A stretch of 5,446 nt of DNA from a virus: the IMG/VR virus record IMGVR_UViG_3300045988_071232, positions 1-5,446 of that record; one strand, 5' to 3'. Each line of letters begins with the position of its first letter. Position 1 is the stretch's first letter. The translations under genes were made by a program, and so were the position numbers. Under the pieces are notes generated by a model. That model saw nothing but the letters and a program-made list of their open reading frames with translations, had not been told where the DNA came from and did not search any database. Shown in pieces: positions 1 to 5,446 of the stretch.

Positions 1-95
1 AGAAGATGGAGTCCTCCATCTCCTGCTGAACTTCATCAAGAAATTCAAAAAACAAATCATTATTCATCAAAATACCTCAAAAGCCTAAAAAAAAC
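1..95. repeat. Terminal redundancy of a circular assembly, identical to 5352..5446. It carries the first 67 nt (minus strand) of the C-tail-anchored ORF.
   Basis: The two 95-nt ends match exactly, base for base. This implies a circular 5351-nt unit. Confidence 0.9.
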
Positions 96-303
96 AATCA
101 TAAGGCAAATATACATCGGAATTATCAAAAATATAAGGATTAGTCCGCAAAAGACAAGATGGATCATAAATGAACGGAATTAAACCATTATTTTCACGGA
201 TCAAACGCCGATAAGTACCATATGACATACACGGATCAGACGGATCTAAAACAACATTTGTATAAAAACCATGCTCTCCAAAAACTTTAAATTTGATTTT
301 CAT
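85..303 (-). CDS. Hypothetical protein, 72 aa (MKIKFKVFGEHGFY...), 3 Cys, function unknown.
   Basis: ATG at 303..301 is preceded by SD GGGAGG 6 nt upstream. It overlaps the upstream ORF by 17 nt. Stop is TAG at 87..85. It lies on the same strand as all the hallmark genes. Confidence 0.5.
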   Translation of the reverse strand: MKIKFKVFGEHGFYTNVVLDPSDPCMSYGTYRRLIRENNGLIPFIYDPSCLLRTNPYIFDNSDVYLPYDCFF

Positions 304-478
304 GCTCTACCTCCCATATTACATTTAAAAGAGAAGGGCTATAACTATAATCCTTAATTTCAGCAGAAATACAATCTAACTGATATTTATTAAATTCAAC
401 AATAACTTCTCCTTCATTCGTAAAAAAGGAAATAAAATCACTACCAATCTCATAACCTTCAACAGATCTTTTTTTCAT
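287..478 (-). CDS. Hypothetical acidic protein, 63 aa (MKKRSVEGYEIGSDF...), function unknown.
   Basis: ATG at 478..476 is preceded by the strong SD AAAGGAGAA 8 nt upstream. It is the first gene downstream of the consensus promoter. Confidence 0.55.
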   Translation of the reverse strand: MKKRSVEGYEIGSDFISFFTNEGEVIVEFNKYQLDCISAEIKDYSYSPSLLNVIWEVEHENQI

Positions 479-508
479 TATTTCAATTCTCCTTTCATTT
501 GATAATTT

Positions 509-537
509 AATTATACATCAAATAAATCAAAATGTCA
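509..537 (-). promoter_or_regulatory. Perfect consensus sigma70-type promoter on the minus strand: -35 TTGACA (537..532), 17-nt spacer, -10 TATAAT (514..509). An AT-rich UP-like tract lies at 538..566.
   Basis: Read directly on the minus strand: CTTCTTGACATTTTGATTTATTTGATGTATAATTAAATT. It begins immediately after the VP1 stop and sits about 30 nt upstream of the ORF63 SD. Confidence 0.6.
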
Positions 538-566
538 AGAAGTAAATCAAAATAAATCTAAAAATA

Positions 567-2258
567 TTAATGATGATCTATTAAACCTGGTATACTAAAT
601 ACAGGCATAGGACGAGTACACAGATTTTTAATATAAAAATCACCGAAAAACTGATTAGCAACAGAAGACGTAACAGCTAACGCACGATCTACATTAGTCT
701 TATCCTCAACGATCCACTCAGGAGAGAGCTTAGGAAGATCAGAATAATCGTCAGCCAAATGCCAAGCATCAAGAGATTTCTTCGATAAAGAACGCATTTC
801 AGCACACACCCTATTAGGTTTGTACCGGTAATCTGCCCATGCTTCTTGATAACCAAAAACGCCATCATCAGCAGCCGTACCTTTTGCAAAAATTTCACGA
901 TTATATACAGGCTGCTCGCCAATATTGGCCAGCGACGGCCAATAATAATCAAAGCGAGTTTTACGGCTAAAGAAACGTTCAATACCGCACTGATACGTAT
1001 GATCATAACGCGCCACACAAAGACCGATCAAAAATCCATGTTCAACGAACGACTGCGTAAAATCCGAATGAGTGTCAACGGTCAAAGAATAAGCGGTAGT
1101 AGTGCCCTGAGGAGTCGTCGCCGATTCAGAATTCTGAACGACCTGATTAACATTAATTAACATACGATTTCCGCCAAGGTACTCCGGGCGCTGGAGCCTA
1201 CTATCAGGGGAAGTAACGCCGAAATGATTAGACAAAATTTCAATATACCTCGTACCACCTCGGGCATCTTTCTCATATATCCTCTGAATTTGAAAAGCCA
1301 AGCGCAATTGATTAATAGTAGCAGCAGTCGCCTGTGTTAAATCCGTCCACAAATTAGAAGGATAAATATCAACACCATCGCCACTATTGCTACCAGCATA
1401 AGTAAGAGAAGAATTATGAAACTTAGCAGCATAATCGCCGATGATAGAAGAATTATCATTAGCATTCCTAAACATCAAAGAAGATGGCTTACCATTAGAA
1501 TCAAGAGACCACTCAGGCCTATGATCATAACTAACTAAATTACCAGTATTACCACCATATACAGGGGCCTGATTACCTAATGGCAATAATACATCAGGAC
1601 CTTTTTGAGGTGATGGAAGACAAGAGGTAAAATAATCTCTAAACTTACCAGCCTTCAAAGGATAACCACCTCTCACGGCCTGAAAAAGACCGGAAGAATC
1701 GTTAGAACCAGCAGTAACATCATCACCTAAAGGAATAGACTGAGGAGTCTGAAGACTTTCATCACGAAACCACTCATTATATATCAAAGCATAAGCACGA
1801 AAAGGAAGAGCAGAAACAGAAAGCTCACCAATATAAGGAGGAATACCCATATAATCGGCTATAGTACCTTCAGCCCAACCGAATTGAGAACTACCACCAC
1901 CAGAACGAACCGGAGAAGTAACCTGAGGAACTGAATACTCGACCTCCGGAAACCAAGGAGCAGAAGTATTTTCGCCCATCATCTCTCGCCAATGCTCCCA
2001 TACCAGACGACAAGGAACGAAAAAATAATACGTATCGAGATAAATATTATCCATCACAGGAGTAACAAGGGTCTGCAAGCGGATAAGCTTAGAAGTATCT
2101 ATCTGAAACGTATCACCAGGAAGAACCTCATCACAATAAAAAGGAATAAGGTCACCAACATTGCCAGAAAGTTTAACACTATGCGAACGATCAAACCTCG
2201 AACGCTGTATATCAACTTGCGGATTTTTAGAAAAATGTGAATTCTGATTCCTATTCAT
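567..2258 (-). CDS. VP1: Major capsid protein VP1 (F-like) of Microviridae/gokushovirus type, 563 aa.
   Basis: The N-terminal signature is ...RSRFDRSHSVKLSGNVGDLIPFYCDEVLPGDTF... The conserved stretch INQLRLAFQIQRIYEKDARGGTRY follows a Ser/Asn/Gly-rich variable loop. SD GGAGG lies 8 nt upstream. There is an 8-nt overlap with the VP3 stop (ATGAATAG). Confidence 0.93.
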   Translation of the reverse strand: MNRNQNSHFSKNPQVDIQRSRFDRSHSVKLSGNVGDLIPFYCDEVLPGDTFQIDTSKLIRLQTLVTPVMDNIYLDTYYFFVPCRLVWEHWREMMGENTSAPWFPEVEYSVPQVTSPVRSGGGSSQFGWAEGTIADYMGIPPYIGELSVSALPFRAYALIYNEWFRDESLQTPQSIPLGDDVTAGSNDSSGLFQAVRGGYPLKAGKFRDYFTSCLPSPQKGPDVLLPLGNQAPVYGGNTGNLVSYDHRPEWSLDSNGKPSSLMFRNANDNSSIIGDYAAKFHNSSLTYAGSNSGDGVDIYPSNLWTDLTQATAATINQLRLAFQIQRIYEKDARGGTRYIEILSNHFGVTSPDSRLQRPEYLGGNRMLINVNQVVQNSESATTPQGTTTAYSLTVDTHSDFTQSFVEHGFLIGLCVARYDHTYQCGIERFFSRKTRFDYYWPSLANIGEQPVYNREIFAKGTAADDGVFGYQEAWADYRYKPNRVCAEMRSLSKKSLDAWHLADDYSDLPKLSPEWIVEDKTNVDRALAVTSSVANQFFGDFYIKNLCTRPMPVFSIPGLIDHH

Positions 2259-2760
2259 TCAAAGTACCTCCATTTCCACTAGACGAATTACCATCGTTAT
2301 TACTGCCGCTATTATTAGAGCTATTAGCTGCCTTTTTCTTAGATCCTTCGGCAGCAGTAAATTTATCAAACTTCTCAAGAAATTCAGGCGTTCCGGCTTG
2401 CCGCCAGAATTCAACAGGGGAATTATTGAAAAGATCTCTGAGTCCGGGGGGTAAGTCATTAAAACTATTCTCAGCGTCTTTAACATACTCATAAATATCA
2501 GCAAGAGTCTTAGGAGAATCAACAATATCCTCATATACACCTTGAACCTTGTTAAGAGCAGTCTCATCACCTTGGGCATAGCGCTGTAAAAGGACAGAAA
2601 GCTCTACAGACTCTCTGTGAGACTGAATCTCCTCATACCTATTATTAACACCAGACACAACAGGATTACCATCATCATCAACGGTATATACTTCATATTC
2701 TTCACGTCCAGACTCACATATAAATCTTTCATGATCATCAAATTGGGTACGATAATCCAT
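2251..2760 (-). CDS. VP3: Internal scaffolding protein VP3-like, 169 aa, with a Ser/Asn/Gly-rich C-terminal tail.
   Basis: Motifs FDDHERF, LQRYAQGD and P.EFW are typical of the gokushovirus scaffold family (Chlamy_scaf-like). The start overlaps the upstream stop as TAATG. SD GGAGG lies 9 nt upstream. Confidence 0.75.
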   Translation of the reverse strand: MDYRTQFDDHERFICESGREEYEVYTVDDDGNPVVSGVNNRYEEIQSHRESVELSVLLQRYAQGDETALNKVQGVYEDIVDSPKTLADIYEYVKDAENSFNDLPPGLRDLFNNSPVEFWRQAGTPEFLEKFDKFTAAEGSKKKAANSSNNSGSNNDGNSSSGNGGTLNE

Positions 2761-2999
2761 TATAAAGTACCTCCATCACAAACAAGCTCAATAGTAGGAC
2801 AAAGAACTATCTCACCAGTAGCAGAATCAAACTCACCAAGCTTATAAAGCTTAAAATCACTCTTATTAGCATTAAACAAAGAGCCTTCGGCCGTTATAGC
2901 ATGGGTAAAATTCCTAACAGCTGTATAATCATTAACGTCCTGAGTAACCTGAAGATAACCCACTTTCTCATCTTTCATAGTATATAAACCATATTTCAT
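2760..2999 (-). CDS. Hypothetical protein, 79 aa (MKYGLYTMKDEKVGY...). Its position is analogous to gokushovirus ORF5/VP5, but no similarity is asserted.
   Basis: The preferred start is the ATG at 2999..2997, with SD AGGAGG 9 nt upstream and an ATGA overlap with the stop of the 33-aa basic ORF. The ORF track extends it to the ATG at 3020, which has no SD. Its stop overlaps the VP3 start (TAATG). Confidence 0.55.
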   Translation of the reverse strand: MKYGLYTMKDEKVGYLQVTQDVNDYTAVRNFTHAITAEGSLFNANKSDFKLYKLGEFDSATGEIVLCPTIELVCDGGTL

Positions 3000-3097
3000 A
3001 ATCTTATTCCTCCTCTCCATTCTCCGGGTTTAACATTAATTTGCTTGGTCTTGCCAGCCGTGCGAGAAAAAACTCTCTTATCTTTACACCTACTCAT
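2996..3097 (-). CDS. Small basic protein, 33 aa (MSRCKDKRVFSRTAGKTKQINVKPGEWRGGIRL), a candidate J/ORF8-like DNA-binding packaging protein. It is absent from the ORF track because it is under 60 aa.
   Basis: Translated by hand from the minus strand. It has 10 Lys/Arg against 2 acidic residues. Its ATG lies 11 nt after the VP4 stop. Its stop TGA overlaps the next ATG (ATGA). A small, very basic J-like protein is expected in Microviridae. Confidence 0.5.
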   Translation of the reverse strand: MSRCKDKRVFSRTAGKTKQINVKPGEWRGGIRL

Positions 3098-3108
3098 TCT
3101 TCTTCGTC

Positions 3109-4137
3109 TCATACTTTACTCCTTTCTTTAAGATGGCCAAGACGATTAATAAGAGTATCCTCCTCTATGGCCAACATTTCCAGATAACTAAGATCTGTTC
3201 TTTTTAACTTATTAGTTTTAACCTTCTCTGCGACAAACTGCCTATTTAATTTTATAGCAGCCATATCAGAAGGATACTCTACGTCATACAATCTATCATA
3301 ATACCTTGGTGGCTTAAAAGATCTACCACCAACAGAAGTTGACAATAAAATCTTATCATAATCATATATCTTATCCTTATTATCATCGTAATAATAACGA
3401 GCAATACCAGGATCACGAGACATACGAACAAAAGGGGGATAAATACCTAAGTCCTCATATATCTCAGAAGACTTACCTTTAAGCTTCTTAGTAACATAAC
3501 GAGCCACATAGCAACAAGTATCCCATGAACACTCAGCAAGAACAGCATGACCACGCTGCTGCCAAGCCTTATCAATAGTAGGAGAATTATATAATATTTC
3601 TCCACGAAAATTAGTTTTATATATCTTAAGATCATTAAGATGAAGACCAAAAATAATAACATGATAATGAGGTCTATGAGTCTCGTCACCATATTCACCA
3701 CAACCAAAAAAACGAATCTTCTGACCTGTATTCTTTCGCAAGCGTTTCATAAAAGAAGAAAGTTCGTCCTTATTAAGCGATACAATAGGAGAGGGGACTA
3801 TCTCTCCGGTATCACAATTTACAAGTTCATGACGATCAGGAAGATGATCATCATCATAAGTTAAAGTTAAGAACCAATTCTCATCATGATACTGAGCTTC
3901 AAGCATGCAACGATTAGCCCAGTCACGAGCATACTGCAAACGACATTCAATACACTGTCCGCAAGGAATTTCAATAAATTCAGAAACGTAATCACCGAAA
4001 GGAACACCTTGCAGAGCATGCCAATGATCACCATCAAAGCGAACAAAATCAATAGCATATGAAACAATCTTATATTTAGGTTTACCAGAATCAGGCCAAA
4101 TACCTACAGGAAAACCTTTTAAAGGATGTTTACACAT
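3109..4137 (-). CDS. VP4: Replication initiation protein VP4 (rolling-circle HUH endonuclease), 342 aa from the ATG at 4137. The ORF track used a TTG at 4167.
   Basis: The N-terminus reads MCKHPLKGF, and a Cys cluster CGQCIECR is present. The motifs are FLTLTYDD (motif 1), HYHVIIFG (HUH motif 2) and CCYVARYVTKK (catalytic Tyr pair, motif 3). Stop is TGA at 3111..3109. Confidence 0.92.
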   Translation of the reverse strand: MCKHPLKGFPVGIWPDSGKPKYKIVSYAIDFVRFDGDHWHALQGVPFGDYVSEFIEIPCGQCIECRLQYARDWANRCMLEAQYHDENWFLTLTYDDDHLPDRHELVNCDTGEIVPSPIVSLNKDELSSFMKRLRKNTGQKIRFFGCGEYGDETHRPHYHVIIFGLHLNDLKIYKTNFRGEILYNSPTIDKAWQQRGHAVLAECSWDTCCYVARYVTKKLKGKSSEIYEDLGIYPPFVRMSRDPGIARYYYDDNKDKIYDYDKILLSTSVGGRSFKPPRYYDRLYDVEYPSDMAAIKLNRQFVAEKVKTNKLKRTDLSYLEMLAIEEDTLINRLGHLKERSKV

Positions 4138-4138
4138 T

Positions 4139-4309
4139 TTAAAAACCTTCGAAAACTTCTTCAACAAGATAAAAATCTATACCACGATCAGATGCAGCTT
4201 CATCAAGATCAGCATAAAAATCATCAGAAGCAACGTCATAATCACTATAAAAGTGAAAAGTTATATAATCATCTTTATACACATCATACAAACTAACAAG
4301 ATAATCCAT
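4139..4309 (-). CDS. Small highly acidic Asp/Tyr/Phe-rich protein, 56 aa (MDYLVSLYDVYKDDYITFHFYSDYDVASDDFYADLDEAASDRGIDFYLVEEVFEGF). It is absent from the ORF track because it is under 60 aa.
   Basis: Translated by hand. SD GAGGTG lies 5 nt upstream of the ATG at 4309. Stop TAA at 4141..4139 ends 1 nt before the VP4 ATG. It has about 16 Asp/Glu against 2-3 basic residues. Confidence 0.5.
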   Translation of the reverse strand: MDYLVSLYDVYKDDYITFHFYSDYDVASDDFYADLDEAASDRGIDFYLVEEVFEGF

Positions 4310-4398
4310 AATAACACCTCATAGCCGGAAAAAACGGCAAAATTCATATTAATAATATACGCTATAAACGTTTAATAAGTGTTTTAAATTCAATAAAT

Positions 4399-4427
4399 AT
4401 TTTAATATTATTCTAAAATAAATACAA
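4399..4427 (-). promoter_or_regulatory. Candidate sigma70-like promoter for the acidic-ORF/VP4 operon: -35 TTGTAT (4427..4422), 17 nt, -10 TAAAAT (4404..4399).
   Basis: The hexamers and spacing were read on the minus strand in the AT-rich intergenic region just downstream of the terminator-like hairpins. The AT-rich context makes chance matches likely. Confidence 0.3.
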
Positions 4428-4442
4428 CGTCAGACTACTTTT

Positions 4443-4498
4443 TTTCAAAAAGGTGTCAGTCAGCCCAGTTACATCAAGAGGGTAACTGGGCTGACTGA
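4443..4498 (-). terminator. Perfect 17-bp stem (4456..4472 with 4482..4498) and a 9-nt loop. On the mRNA strand it is followed by CACC-TTTTT-G-AAAAAAA. This is a candidate intrinsic terminator after VP2 and/or an ssDNA origin hairpin.
   Basis: tcagtcagcccagttac / atcaagagg / gtaactgggctgactga was read directly. The T tract is complementary to 4447..4451. Confidence 0.45.
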
Positions 4499-4500
4499 TG

Positions 4501-4524
4501 CACTGTCCTATTTATAGGACAGTG
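4501..4524. other. Second perfect hairpin: a 10-bp stem (cactgtccta / taggacagtg) with a 4-nt loop ttta. It lies 4 nt after the VP2 stop.
   Basis: Read directly. It is separated from the first hairpin by only 2 nt. Confidence 0.6.
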
Positions 4525-4528
4525 TACA

Positions 4529-5137
4529 CTACTTTTTAAATAAAGAACTAATAAAGTTCGCAAAAGGTTGACCAATATACTTCTGATAACCTTGATATAC
4601 TGAACCAAGCAAGGAGAAAGGACTTGAAGGAAAGTCACGCTTACTTGCATAAGACTTATTAGAAGCATACCGGGAAGCACTACTCGAAAGCGTTGAACCT
4701 AAAATAGAAGCGACGGAGCTACGATCTGCACCATACCGGGAAGCAGCAGCGCTCATAGAAGCAGAACCGAGCATAGCATTAGCACTAATCTGTGCGGCAT
4801 TAATCTGTGTAGCAGAAGAAATAAGAGACTGGAGATAACCAGCTATAGCAGAAGAATAAGACTCATCAACTTTACCAGATTTACCGGTAGCGGTGGCACC
4901 GGAAGGAGTAGCAGCTCCTTGTCCACCGGTAGATAAAATAGGGTTAAGACCGGCGGCGATCAAGTCTTTAACCTCTCTTTGATGGGCCGTATTGGACATA
5001 TTCTCTTGCCAAGAACGAGTAAGAGCAGCCTGTTCAGCATTAAAAGCCATCTCCTCACGTGCGAAAGCCTGAGACTGCGCCGTATTCGCTGCAGAGCTCT
5101 CTTTGATGGAATTAAGTAAATCGTCATACATTGCCAT
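4529..5137 (-). CDS. VP2: Minor capsid / DNA pilot protein VP2, 202 aa.
   Basis: The conserved N-terminal region reads ...AFNAEQAALTRSWQENMSNTAHQREVKDLIAAGLNPILS. A long Ala/Ser/Gly-rich low-complexity region follows. SD GAGGTG lies 5 nt upstream of the ATG at 5137. Stop is TAG at 4531..4529. Confidence 0.82.
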   Translation of the reverse strand: MAMYDDLLNSIKESSAANTAQSQAFAREEMAFNAEQAALTRSWQENMSNTAHQREVKDLIAAGLNPILSTGGQGAATPSGATATGKSGKVDESYSSAIAGYLQSLISSATQINAAQISANAMLGSASMSAAASRYGADRSSVASILGSTLSSSASRYASNKSYASKRDFPSSPFSLLGSVYQGYQKYIGQPFANFISSLFKK

Positions 5138-5165
5138 AATAACACCTCTTAAAAATGAAAATAGA

Positions 5166-5201
5166 GCCTTGGCAAGGGCATCGCTCTGCTTATGCCAAGG
5201 C
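5166..5201 (-). promoter_or_regulatory. GC-rich hairpin (9-bp stem gccttggca/tgccaaggc, 18-nt loop) between the tail-anchored ORF and VP2. On the mRNA strand it is followed by the T-rich tract TCTATTTTCATTTTT, then the VP2 SD.
   Basis: The inverted repeat was read directly. It is a GC island in an AT-rich spacer. Confidence 0.4.
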
Positions 5202-5223
5202 AGCTTATAAGGAGAAAATTACT

Positions 5224-5418
5224 TCATAGTAGGAGCAGCAGCAGGATCAAGGCCATGACGCTCAAAAAAAGAGGTATATAAGCGTTAAACCAAGCGCAAA
5301 CGTCGCTAACATCCAAACTGATGTGAAAACCTTCAAAAGTATAATAACGGCAGAAGATGGAGTCCTCCATCTCCTGCTGAACTTCATCAAGAAATTCAAA
5401 AAACAAATCATTATTCAT
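5224..5418 (-). CDS. Hypothetical C-tail-anchored membrane protein, 64 aa from the ATG at 5418. It has an acidic N-terminal domain and a C-terminal hydrophobic segment AWFNAYIPLFLSVMALILLLLLL ending at the stop codon.
   Basis: The ORF spans the circular junction, and its start lies in the terminal repeat (equivalent to 67..65). SD GAGGT lies 6 nt upstream. Stop TGA is at 5226..5224. The ORF track's first M is a TTG. Confidence 0.5.
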   Translation of the reverse strand: MNNDLFFEFLDEVQQEMEDSIFCRYYTFEGFHISLDVSDVCAWFNAYIPLFLSVMALILLLLLL

Positions 5419-5446
5419 CAAAATACCTCAAAAGCCTAAAAAAAAC
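5352..5446. repeat. Second copy of the terminal redundancy (= 1..95).
   Basis: Exact 95-nt identity with the window start. Confidence 0.9.

Follow-up and report, generated by a model that had tools for sequence, protein, structure and literature searches.

Does a full match to the bacterial housekeeping promoter consensus, found between two genes of a small single-stranded DNA (ssDNA) phage, work as a promoter, and which genes would it express? The question is raised by the virus IMGVR_UViG_3300045988_071232 (IMG/VR), a gokushovirus of the gut whose positions 1 to 5,446 form the stretch analysed here (the window). Shortly after the stop codon of the major capsid gene VP1, the minus strand of the window reads TTGACA, 17 nucleotides (nt) and TATAAT. 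A first-pass annotation had taken this element for a strong promoter of an accessory gene block. Our analysis indicates that the element is very likely a working promoter for the sigma-70/sigma-A RNA polymerase of the host. With a probability of about 0.78, we favour a functional promoter that would act as an internal booster and would head a moron-like cassette of small open reading frames (ORFs), o63, o72 and o65, located between VP1 and the pilot protein gene VP2.

The presence and the rarity of the element, as described in the first-pass annotation, were both confirmed. It extends over 538..510 and begins 28 nt past the VP1 stop codon (569..567), inside an 88-nt non-coding gap (566..479) that separates VP1 from the ATG of o63 at 478. 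The hexamers lie on the same strand as o63 and point at it, the -10 hexamer ending 31 nt ahead of its ATG. Transcription from the predicted start A503 would give a 25-nt leader carrying the Shine-Dalgarno sequence AAAGGAG, which is unvarying in all relatives. When both strands of the genome were scanned, the 12/12 match occurred once, and the runner-up on the sense strand reached 9/12. The number of exact matches expected on both strands was calculated analytically from mononucleotide or first-order Markov models. It is 0.0019-0.0027 in this genome with the spacer fixed at 17 nt and rises to 0.006-0.008 when 16-18 nt are allowed. Promoter-like matches of at least 9/12 are not enriched (17 compared to 16.0 expected), and the perfect match alone is unusual.

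The A/T-rich UP-like tract described upstream of the hexamers is A/T-rich but does not qualify as an UP element. A+T makes up 87% of the 30 nt preceding the -35 hexamer and 83% of the VP1-o63 gap. Comparison of the tract with the E. coli consensus NNAAAWWTWTTTTNNNAAANNN (-59 to -38) gave 8 matches at the 14 specified positions, a score that 10% of the genome's 22-mers also reach. An UP element (alpha-CTD site) was therefore rejected, since the match does not exceed the background. An extended -10 TGn motif is absent, as the TG in GATGTATAAT touches the hexamer without an intervening base. An Rfam search returned no matching family.

Conservation was analysed in relatives that carry the same cassette. 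These were gathered by VP1 and cassette-protein searches of viral and metagenome contigs and by o72 and o63 homolog searches, and the encoding contigs were retrieved. The sample comprised 21 distinct haplotypes of the VP1-o63 gap; seven genomes, 88-96% identical overall, were compared in full. One contig (L135) was excluded from the counts as an assembly artefact. At its start (1..29), a Nextera transposase adapter (…AGATGTGTATAAGAGACAG) is joined to phage sequence within the promoter spacer. The promoter is intact at 12/12 in 17 of the 21 haplotypes and at 11/12 in three more, and one haplotype lacks the -35 hexamer. The 11/12 variants are TATAGT (L002/L083), TATTAT (L084) and TTGATA (L085). 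All three have kept the bases that matter most (TTG and TAnnnT), the two -10 variants retaining A2 and T6. TTGACA is identical in 19/21 haplotypes, and the spacer is 17 nt long in each relative with both hexamers. Three genomes with a truncated o63 (L132-L134) likewise have a 12/12 promoter. In 16 genomes, nucleotide diversity is 0.0215 at the 12 hexamer positions, where all variants are singletons, 0.063 in the remaining gap and 0.171 in the genes on either side, measured at their third codon positions. The hexamers are less diverse than these third codon positions (permutation P = 0.004), and constraint extends over the whole gap, whose diversity is about 3-fold lower than at the same positions.

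Promoters were then surveyed in 80 related gokushovirus genomes (L001-L080, 428 kb, VP1 51-94% identical), retaining matches of at least 11/12. The sense strand contains 37 such matches (9 perfect and 28 at 11/12) and the antisense strand 5, all at 11/12. The expectation per strand is 0.085 perfect matches and 3.3 at 11/12, and mononucleotide composition predicts the same count on each strand. The matches are spread over several unrelated positions and lineages, with approximately one near-consensus promoter per genome in about 35 of the 80 relatives. They are mostly non-coding and located 20-30 nt ahead of the ribosome-binding site of a tiny ORF (35-68 aa). The commonest place is the post-VP2 gap, before a tiny ORF and VP4; a second group is found past VP4, before ORFs of 55-68 aa. 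A promoter past VP1 is found only in the lineage of the window. A few matches overlap with the VP1 end and the VP2 start and are probably incidental. Genomes of this clade thus repeatedly carry a predicted coding-strand promoter of the housekeeping type, close to the consensus and in many cases just ahead of a very small ORF. This recurrence supports a function of the element in the window; it also makes the element an ordinary one.

Which polymerase would use the promoter? The phage does not encode one, and its nearest integrated relatives reside in long Bacillota contigs (a Peptostreptococcaceae metagenome-assembled genome (MAG), Oscillibacter sp. PC13, Muriventricola aceti and other Clostridia). 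The promoter call itself is well supported, and its use by the host RNA polymerase is very probable. Clostridial sigma-A uses the TTGACA/TATAAT consensus. From the integrated relatives we infer that the host is a clostridial member of the Bacillota. The relative in the Peptostreptococcaceae MAG (L089, 68% VP1 identity) lies on a 317-kb contig. It forms a gokushovirus prophage of about 5.06 kb between 32-nt imperfect palindromes (3587..3618 and 8644..8675), whose 13-nt arms around a 6-nt centre have the architecture of dif/Xer sites. A dif-like site of this type was searched for in the window and gave 0 matches at up to 3 mismatches. Two other relatives (L095 and L114, 57% VP1 identity) are integrated in the cultured isolates Oscillibacter sp. 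PC13 and Muriventricola aceti, which might serve as experimental hosts for gokushoviruses of this clade.

The ends of the contig are an exact 95-nt direct repeat (1..95 = 5352..5446), so the genome is a 5351-nt circle. Its circular order is o56-VP4-VP5-VP3-VP1-[gap]-o63-o72-o65-VP2, with all real genes on the minus strand. The block towards which the promoter points had accordingly been ordered correctly in the first-pass annotation (63-aa ORF, 72-aa ORF, tail-anchored ORF, VP2). Its view of this block as a single unit, separate from the VP4-to-VP1 operon, was not supported by the anatomy. Upstream, no terminator or hairpin was found between the VP1 stop codon and the promoter (479..580 scanned; folding z score of -1.17 relative to shuffled sequences). 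VP1 transcripts should therefore run into the cassette, and the promoter would add to an existing flow of transcription. Downstream, between the cassette and VP2, a conserved hairpin is followed by a U-rich tract, UCUAUUUUCAUUUUU, and then directly by the VP2 ribosome-binding site (Table 1). This structure is a putative leaky intrinsic terminator or attenuator. Its stem occurs as two haplotypes, with a T-A or a C-G pair (GCCTTGGCA/TGCCAAGGC or GCCCTGGCA/TGCCAGGGC). None of 16 genomes mixes the two, and this paired switch fits selection for pairing. In an outgroup without the cassette (L003), a hairpin and a T-run are located between VP1 and VP2. The hairpin of the window may thus be an ancestral post-VP1 attenuator or terminator. 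VP2 probably receives attenuated read-through.

Past the VP2 stop codon lies a much more stable double hairpin (-46.6 kcal/mol, z -9.4), with compensatory changes among relatives in both stems. Its tail motif TGACACCTTTTTGAAAAAAAGT is retained in the L089 prophage. The double hairpin is likely the main terminator and would end the transcripts of this promoter. Beyond it, at the canonical post-VP2 position, a weak candidate (TTGTAT-17-TAAAAT, 8/12) is included in a 50-nt A/T-rich block (about 4380..4431, in the VP2-to-o56 gap) that is invariant in 7 genomes differing by 4-12%. The homologous position of L089, after the hairpin, reads TTGACA-17-TATATT. The candidate is probably the resident promoter for o56-VP4-VP5-VP3-VP1, and the invariant block could be the promoter of the VP4 operon, an origin, or both.

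The predicted promoter marks where a moron-like, low-GC insertion of ORFan genes begins on its 5′ side. The GC content is 17% in the VP1-o63 gap, 27% in o63 and 31% in o72, compared to 35-44% in the core genes. The third ORF, o65, deviates in the opposite direction, with a GC content at third codon positions of 0.49 compared to 0.1-0.3 in the other genes. In most relatives with about 60% VP1 identity, the VP2 ribosome-binding site lies within about 10 nt of the VP1 stop codon. In L003-L020, VP1 and VP2 have nothing or just a hairpin between them, and in the L089 prophage VP2 directly follows VP1. From this adjacency in the outgroups, the gap together with o63, o72 and, in some genomes, o65 can be recognised as a lineage-specific insertion. 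o65 is found in L082, L085, L088, L120, L128 and L130 and is missing from other close relatives. At that place, relatives without o65 show a short hairpin, GGAGGCC-TTTTT-GGCCTCC (L001 3262..3300). The codon-position diversity of o63 follows a coding pattern. In some relatives o63 is cut to 39-54 aa (L132 5284..5409, a version present on 8 contigs; L133 3658..3777; L134 3901..4065), and the L128/L129 lineage has an in-frame 27-aa deletion in o72 besides a 20-nt deletion in the gap (L128 ~1067..1136 and 1311..1448 for the two regions). None of the three cassette proteins matched Pfam or PHROGs, and their homologs are close copies only, on microvirus contigs of about 5-5.5 kb. The AlphaFold2 models are weak (pLDDT 50 for o72 and 66 for o63), and Foldseek comparison of the cassette proteins with PDB and BFVD gave no match at E < 0.1. 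As to a donor, the gap, o63 and o72 had no DNA match in GenBank phages; a megablast search with the whole genome gave matches limited to parts of VP1 and VP4.

Several observations weigh against a functional promoter at the head of such a cassette. In L128/L129, which come from two independent samples, a 20-nt deletion between direct-repeat copies, the sole indel in the gap among the 21 haplotypes, has taken the -35 hexamer together with a piece of the spacer and left TATAAT. This lineage still circulates with its ORFs kept. Conservation in relatives of the same gene content, proposed as a check of the promoter in the first-pass annotation, is therefore broad (at least 11/12 in 20 of 21 haplotypes) but not complete. 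The promoter is thus dispensable for viability, which does not show that it is non-functional. Moreover, hexamer diversity does not differ significantly from that of the remaining gap (P = 0.17), and the total divergence is low, so that the constraint is not assignable to the hexamers specifically. The 80 genomes of the survey are not phylogenetically independent, and the host assignment relies on relatives with just 57-68% VP1 identity. As for the hairpin ahead of VP2, its paired substitutions are about 27 nt apart and may reflect linkage instead of selection, and it folds only modestly better than shuffled sequences (z -1.55).

Could the promoter instead be the principal promoter of the whole genome, moved in this lineage from the post-VP2 to the post-VP1 gap? 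Read-through of leaky hairpins round the circle would then express VP2, VP4, VP5, VP3 and VP1. Relatives usually have one near-consensus promoter, mostly in the VP2-to-VP4 gap (L089, L030, L042-L063, L075), where the window offers only the 8/12 candidate. The retention of a 12/12 match in front of a truncated o63 and the leakiness of phiX174 terminators point in the same direction. However, the double hairpin past VP2 is very stable, ends in a U-run and resembles an efficient terminator. In addition, a resident promoter for VP4-VP1 is probable in the invariant block, and L128/L129 survive without a -35 hexamer. We therefore consider a displaced principal promoter unlikely. A chance match without promoter function, in non-coding DNA that is very rich in A/T, would agree with the background frequency of matches of at least 9/12, with the lack of a significant difference between the hexamers and the rest of the gap, and with the lineage devoid of -35. 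It is difficult to reconcile with an expectation of 0.002-0.008 perfect matches per genome, with the correct strand, position and distance to the Shine-Dalgarno sequence, with the fixed 17-nt spacing in the 20 haplotypes at 11/12 or better, or with the excess on the sense strand of the family (9 perfect matches compared to 0.085 expected, and 0 on the antisense strand). Coincidence thus appears very improbable.

The gap might also be mainly a protein-binding or replication element, the hexamers being secondary. Three in-phase copies of the repeat T(T/A)GATTTAYT are found within 40 nt, one of them inside the spacer (Table 1), and could serve as iterons or operators to which the Rep protein VP4, or a regulator encoded by the cassette, would bind. 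The low diversity of the whole gap, and not of the hexamers alone, is compatible with this idea. Yet the motif is not over-represented in the genome (4 copies compared to 2.8 expected), and its copies differ among relatives (TTAATTTAC, TTGATTTAG, TTTTATTTAT, TTGGTTTGT). The iteron/operator reading of the TTGATTTAYT repeats was rejected on these two grounds. In a variant of the same proposal, the site would act on the viral ssDNA and prime complementary-strand synthesis, as in filamentous phages. A hairpin mimicking a double-stranded promoter, as in the complementary-strand origin of M13, was likewise rejected, since the gap folds no better than shuffled sequences (z -1.17). Finally, the outgroups replicate without the gap. 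A replication or binding element seems to us scarcely credible as its main role.

The working of the favoured internal booster can be outlined as follows. The host sigma-70-family holoenzyme (sigma-A if the host is clostridial) would bind 538..510 on the double-stranded replicative form. Transcription would begin at about A503 and produce a short leader containing a strong Shine-Dalgarno sequence, and would then proceed through o63, o72 and o65. A fraction of the transcripts would end at the hairpin and U-tract just ahead of VP2, and the remaining ones would pass through VP2 and end at the double-hairpin terminator. Placed within a continuous flow of transcription, the promoter would raise downstream expression in the manner of pB and pD of phiX174. 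In this scheme the start site, the promoter strength, the partial termination and the host are inferred.

How does this arrangement compare with known systems? With the housekeeping promoters of Escherichia coli, Bacillus and Clostridium, the element shares the hexamers, the optimal 17-nt spacer, a purine 7 nt past the -10 hexamer, an A/T-rich upstream region and a non-coding location just ahead of a Shine-Dalgarno sequence and start codon. It differs in that natural promoters seldom reach 12/12, and in that TGn, common in Gram-positive promoters, is absent, as is a significant UP-element match. The promoters of related gut gokushoviruses have the same hexamers, spacing and sense strand and the same distance of 20-30 nt to the ribosome-binding site of a small ORF, but are mostly located in the VP2-to-VP4 gap or past VP4. 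In phiX174, transcription increases about 2-2.5-fold at pB and pD, and the terminators TJ, TF and TG stop no more than 20-40% of it (bioRxiv 10.1101/2020.03.05.979765). That member of the Microviridae is also a small circular ssDNA phage with genes on one strand, a promoter downstream of an unterminated gene, hairpin terminators between structural genes and nested transcripts that set relative gene dosage. However, it belongs to another subfamily and infects another host phylum, and its promoters are non-consensus and modest. Moreover, they precede replication and morphogenesis genes, whereas the promoter of the window precedes non-essential accessory ORFs; read-through in the phage of the window is presumed.

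In tailed phages, morons are defined as extra DNA between genes that are otherwise adjacent, with its own promoter, a 3′ hairpin and a deviant composition (PMC4378225). The cassette of the window resembles them by its predicted consensus promoter at the 5′ edge, the hairpin and U-tract at the 3′ edge, a lower GC content and a gene content that varies among close relatives (o65 present or absent, o63 and o72 truncated). It differs by its carrier, a 5.3-kb ssDNA microvirus instead of a tailed double-stranded DNA phage, and by its two or three genes instead of one. In addition, its 3′ hairpin may represent the terminator that ancestrally followed VP1, and no dif-like site was found in the window. 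The resemblance suggested by these features is close but incomplete. A true moron, that is, a mobile and self-expressed cassette whose products would reach the highest level of any phage gene, is in our view a doubtful proposition for this ssDNA microvirus. If it were one, o63, o72 and the tail-anchored o65 could serve a function to which no gokushovirus gene is yet assigned, such as host lysis, superinfection exclusion or anti-defence, and a near-consensus promoter joined to a tiny ORF would be a general route by which microviruses acquire and express accessory genes.

The remaining features are collected in Table 1. Human-gut gokushoviruses have the gene order VP4-VP5-VP3-VP1-VP2 (PMC3394797). 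The window shares this order and adds the three small ORFs between VP1 and VP2. A strong Shine-Dalgarno sequence precedes each gene, in keeping with a Bacillota host. The closed circle contains five non-coding gaps, about 570 nt in total, one of which holds the promoter; a listing of gaps on the linear contig counts the end fragments 1..84 and 5422..5446 separately. The mechanical ORF call starts VP4 at TTG 4167 (352 aa, overlapping o56). In relatives, VP4 is called as 342 aa and begins directly past the o56 stop codon. The true start is probably ATG 4137.

Table 1. Coordinates of the promoter, the cassette and neighbouring features in the window.
Feature	Position	Strand	Remarks
-35 hexamer TTGACA	533..538 (read 538..533)	-	6/6 consensus
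Spacer, 17 nt	516..532	-	holds one TTGATTTATT repeat copy (530..521); no TGn extended -10
-10 hexamer TATAAT	510..515 (read 515..510)	-	6/6 consensus
Predicted transcription start, A	503	-	7 nt past -10; from sequence and standard -10-to-start spacing
A/T-rich upstream tract	539..566	-	phased repeats of about 10 bp, TAGATTTATT (560..551) and TTGATTTACT (550..541)
Shine-Dalgarno sequence AAAGGAG	489..495	-	10 nt before o63 ATG
o63, first accessory ORF	287..478	-	63 aa; ORFan
o72, second accessory ORF	85..303	-	72 aa; ORFan; overlaps the end of o63; homologs on microvirus contigs of about 5-5.4 kb only
o65, third accessory ORF	5224..5421	-	64-65 aa; hydrophobic C-terminal tail; starts 14 nt past o72 stop in the circle
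Putative pre-VP2 attenuator: hairpin and U-rich tract	5201..5166 and 5165..5151	-	9-bp GC-rich stem; centroid -21 kcal/mol
VP2, DNA pilot protein	4529..5137	-	PHROG pilot-protein matches
Double hairpin and CCUUUUUG past VP2 stop	4446..4524	-	likely main terminator
Weak promoter candidate TTGTAT-17-TAAAAT	4399..4427	-	8/12; canonical post-VP2 position
VP4, rolling-circle Rep	3109..4167	-	Pfam
ORF5/VP5	2760..3020	-	Pfam
VP3, scaffold, Chp2-type	2251..2760	-	Pfam
VP1, major capsid	567..2258	-	Pfam Phage_F, E 2e-166; directly upstream of the promoter gap

As a textbook promoter, the element alters no concept. What the analysis adds is the strand-specific survey of its recurrence, the shifted position of the promoter and the moron-like cassette. 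A search of the available literature collection on gokushovirus promoters, SpV4 promoters and microvirus morons gave nothing usable. Transcription of SpV4 was reportedly mapped around 1990. Gokushoviruses are among the most abundant ssDNA phages of the gut, and their transcription is almost undescribed; two microvirus surveys are silent on promoters. The element is also a candidate strong promoter for clostridial genetics. Our results suggest that a single host promoter close to the consensus is typical of Clostridia-associated gokushoviruses, that it lies on the coding strand, often ahead of tiny ORFan genes, and that its position can shift between lineages. Such promoters may provide a simple sequence handle for predicting transcription units and for recognising, in microvirus genomes from metagenomes, accessory genes gained recently.

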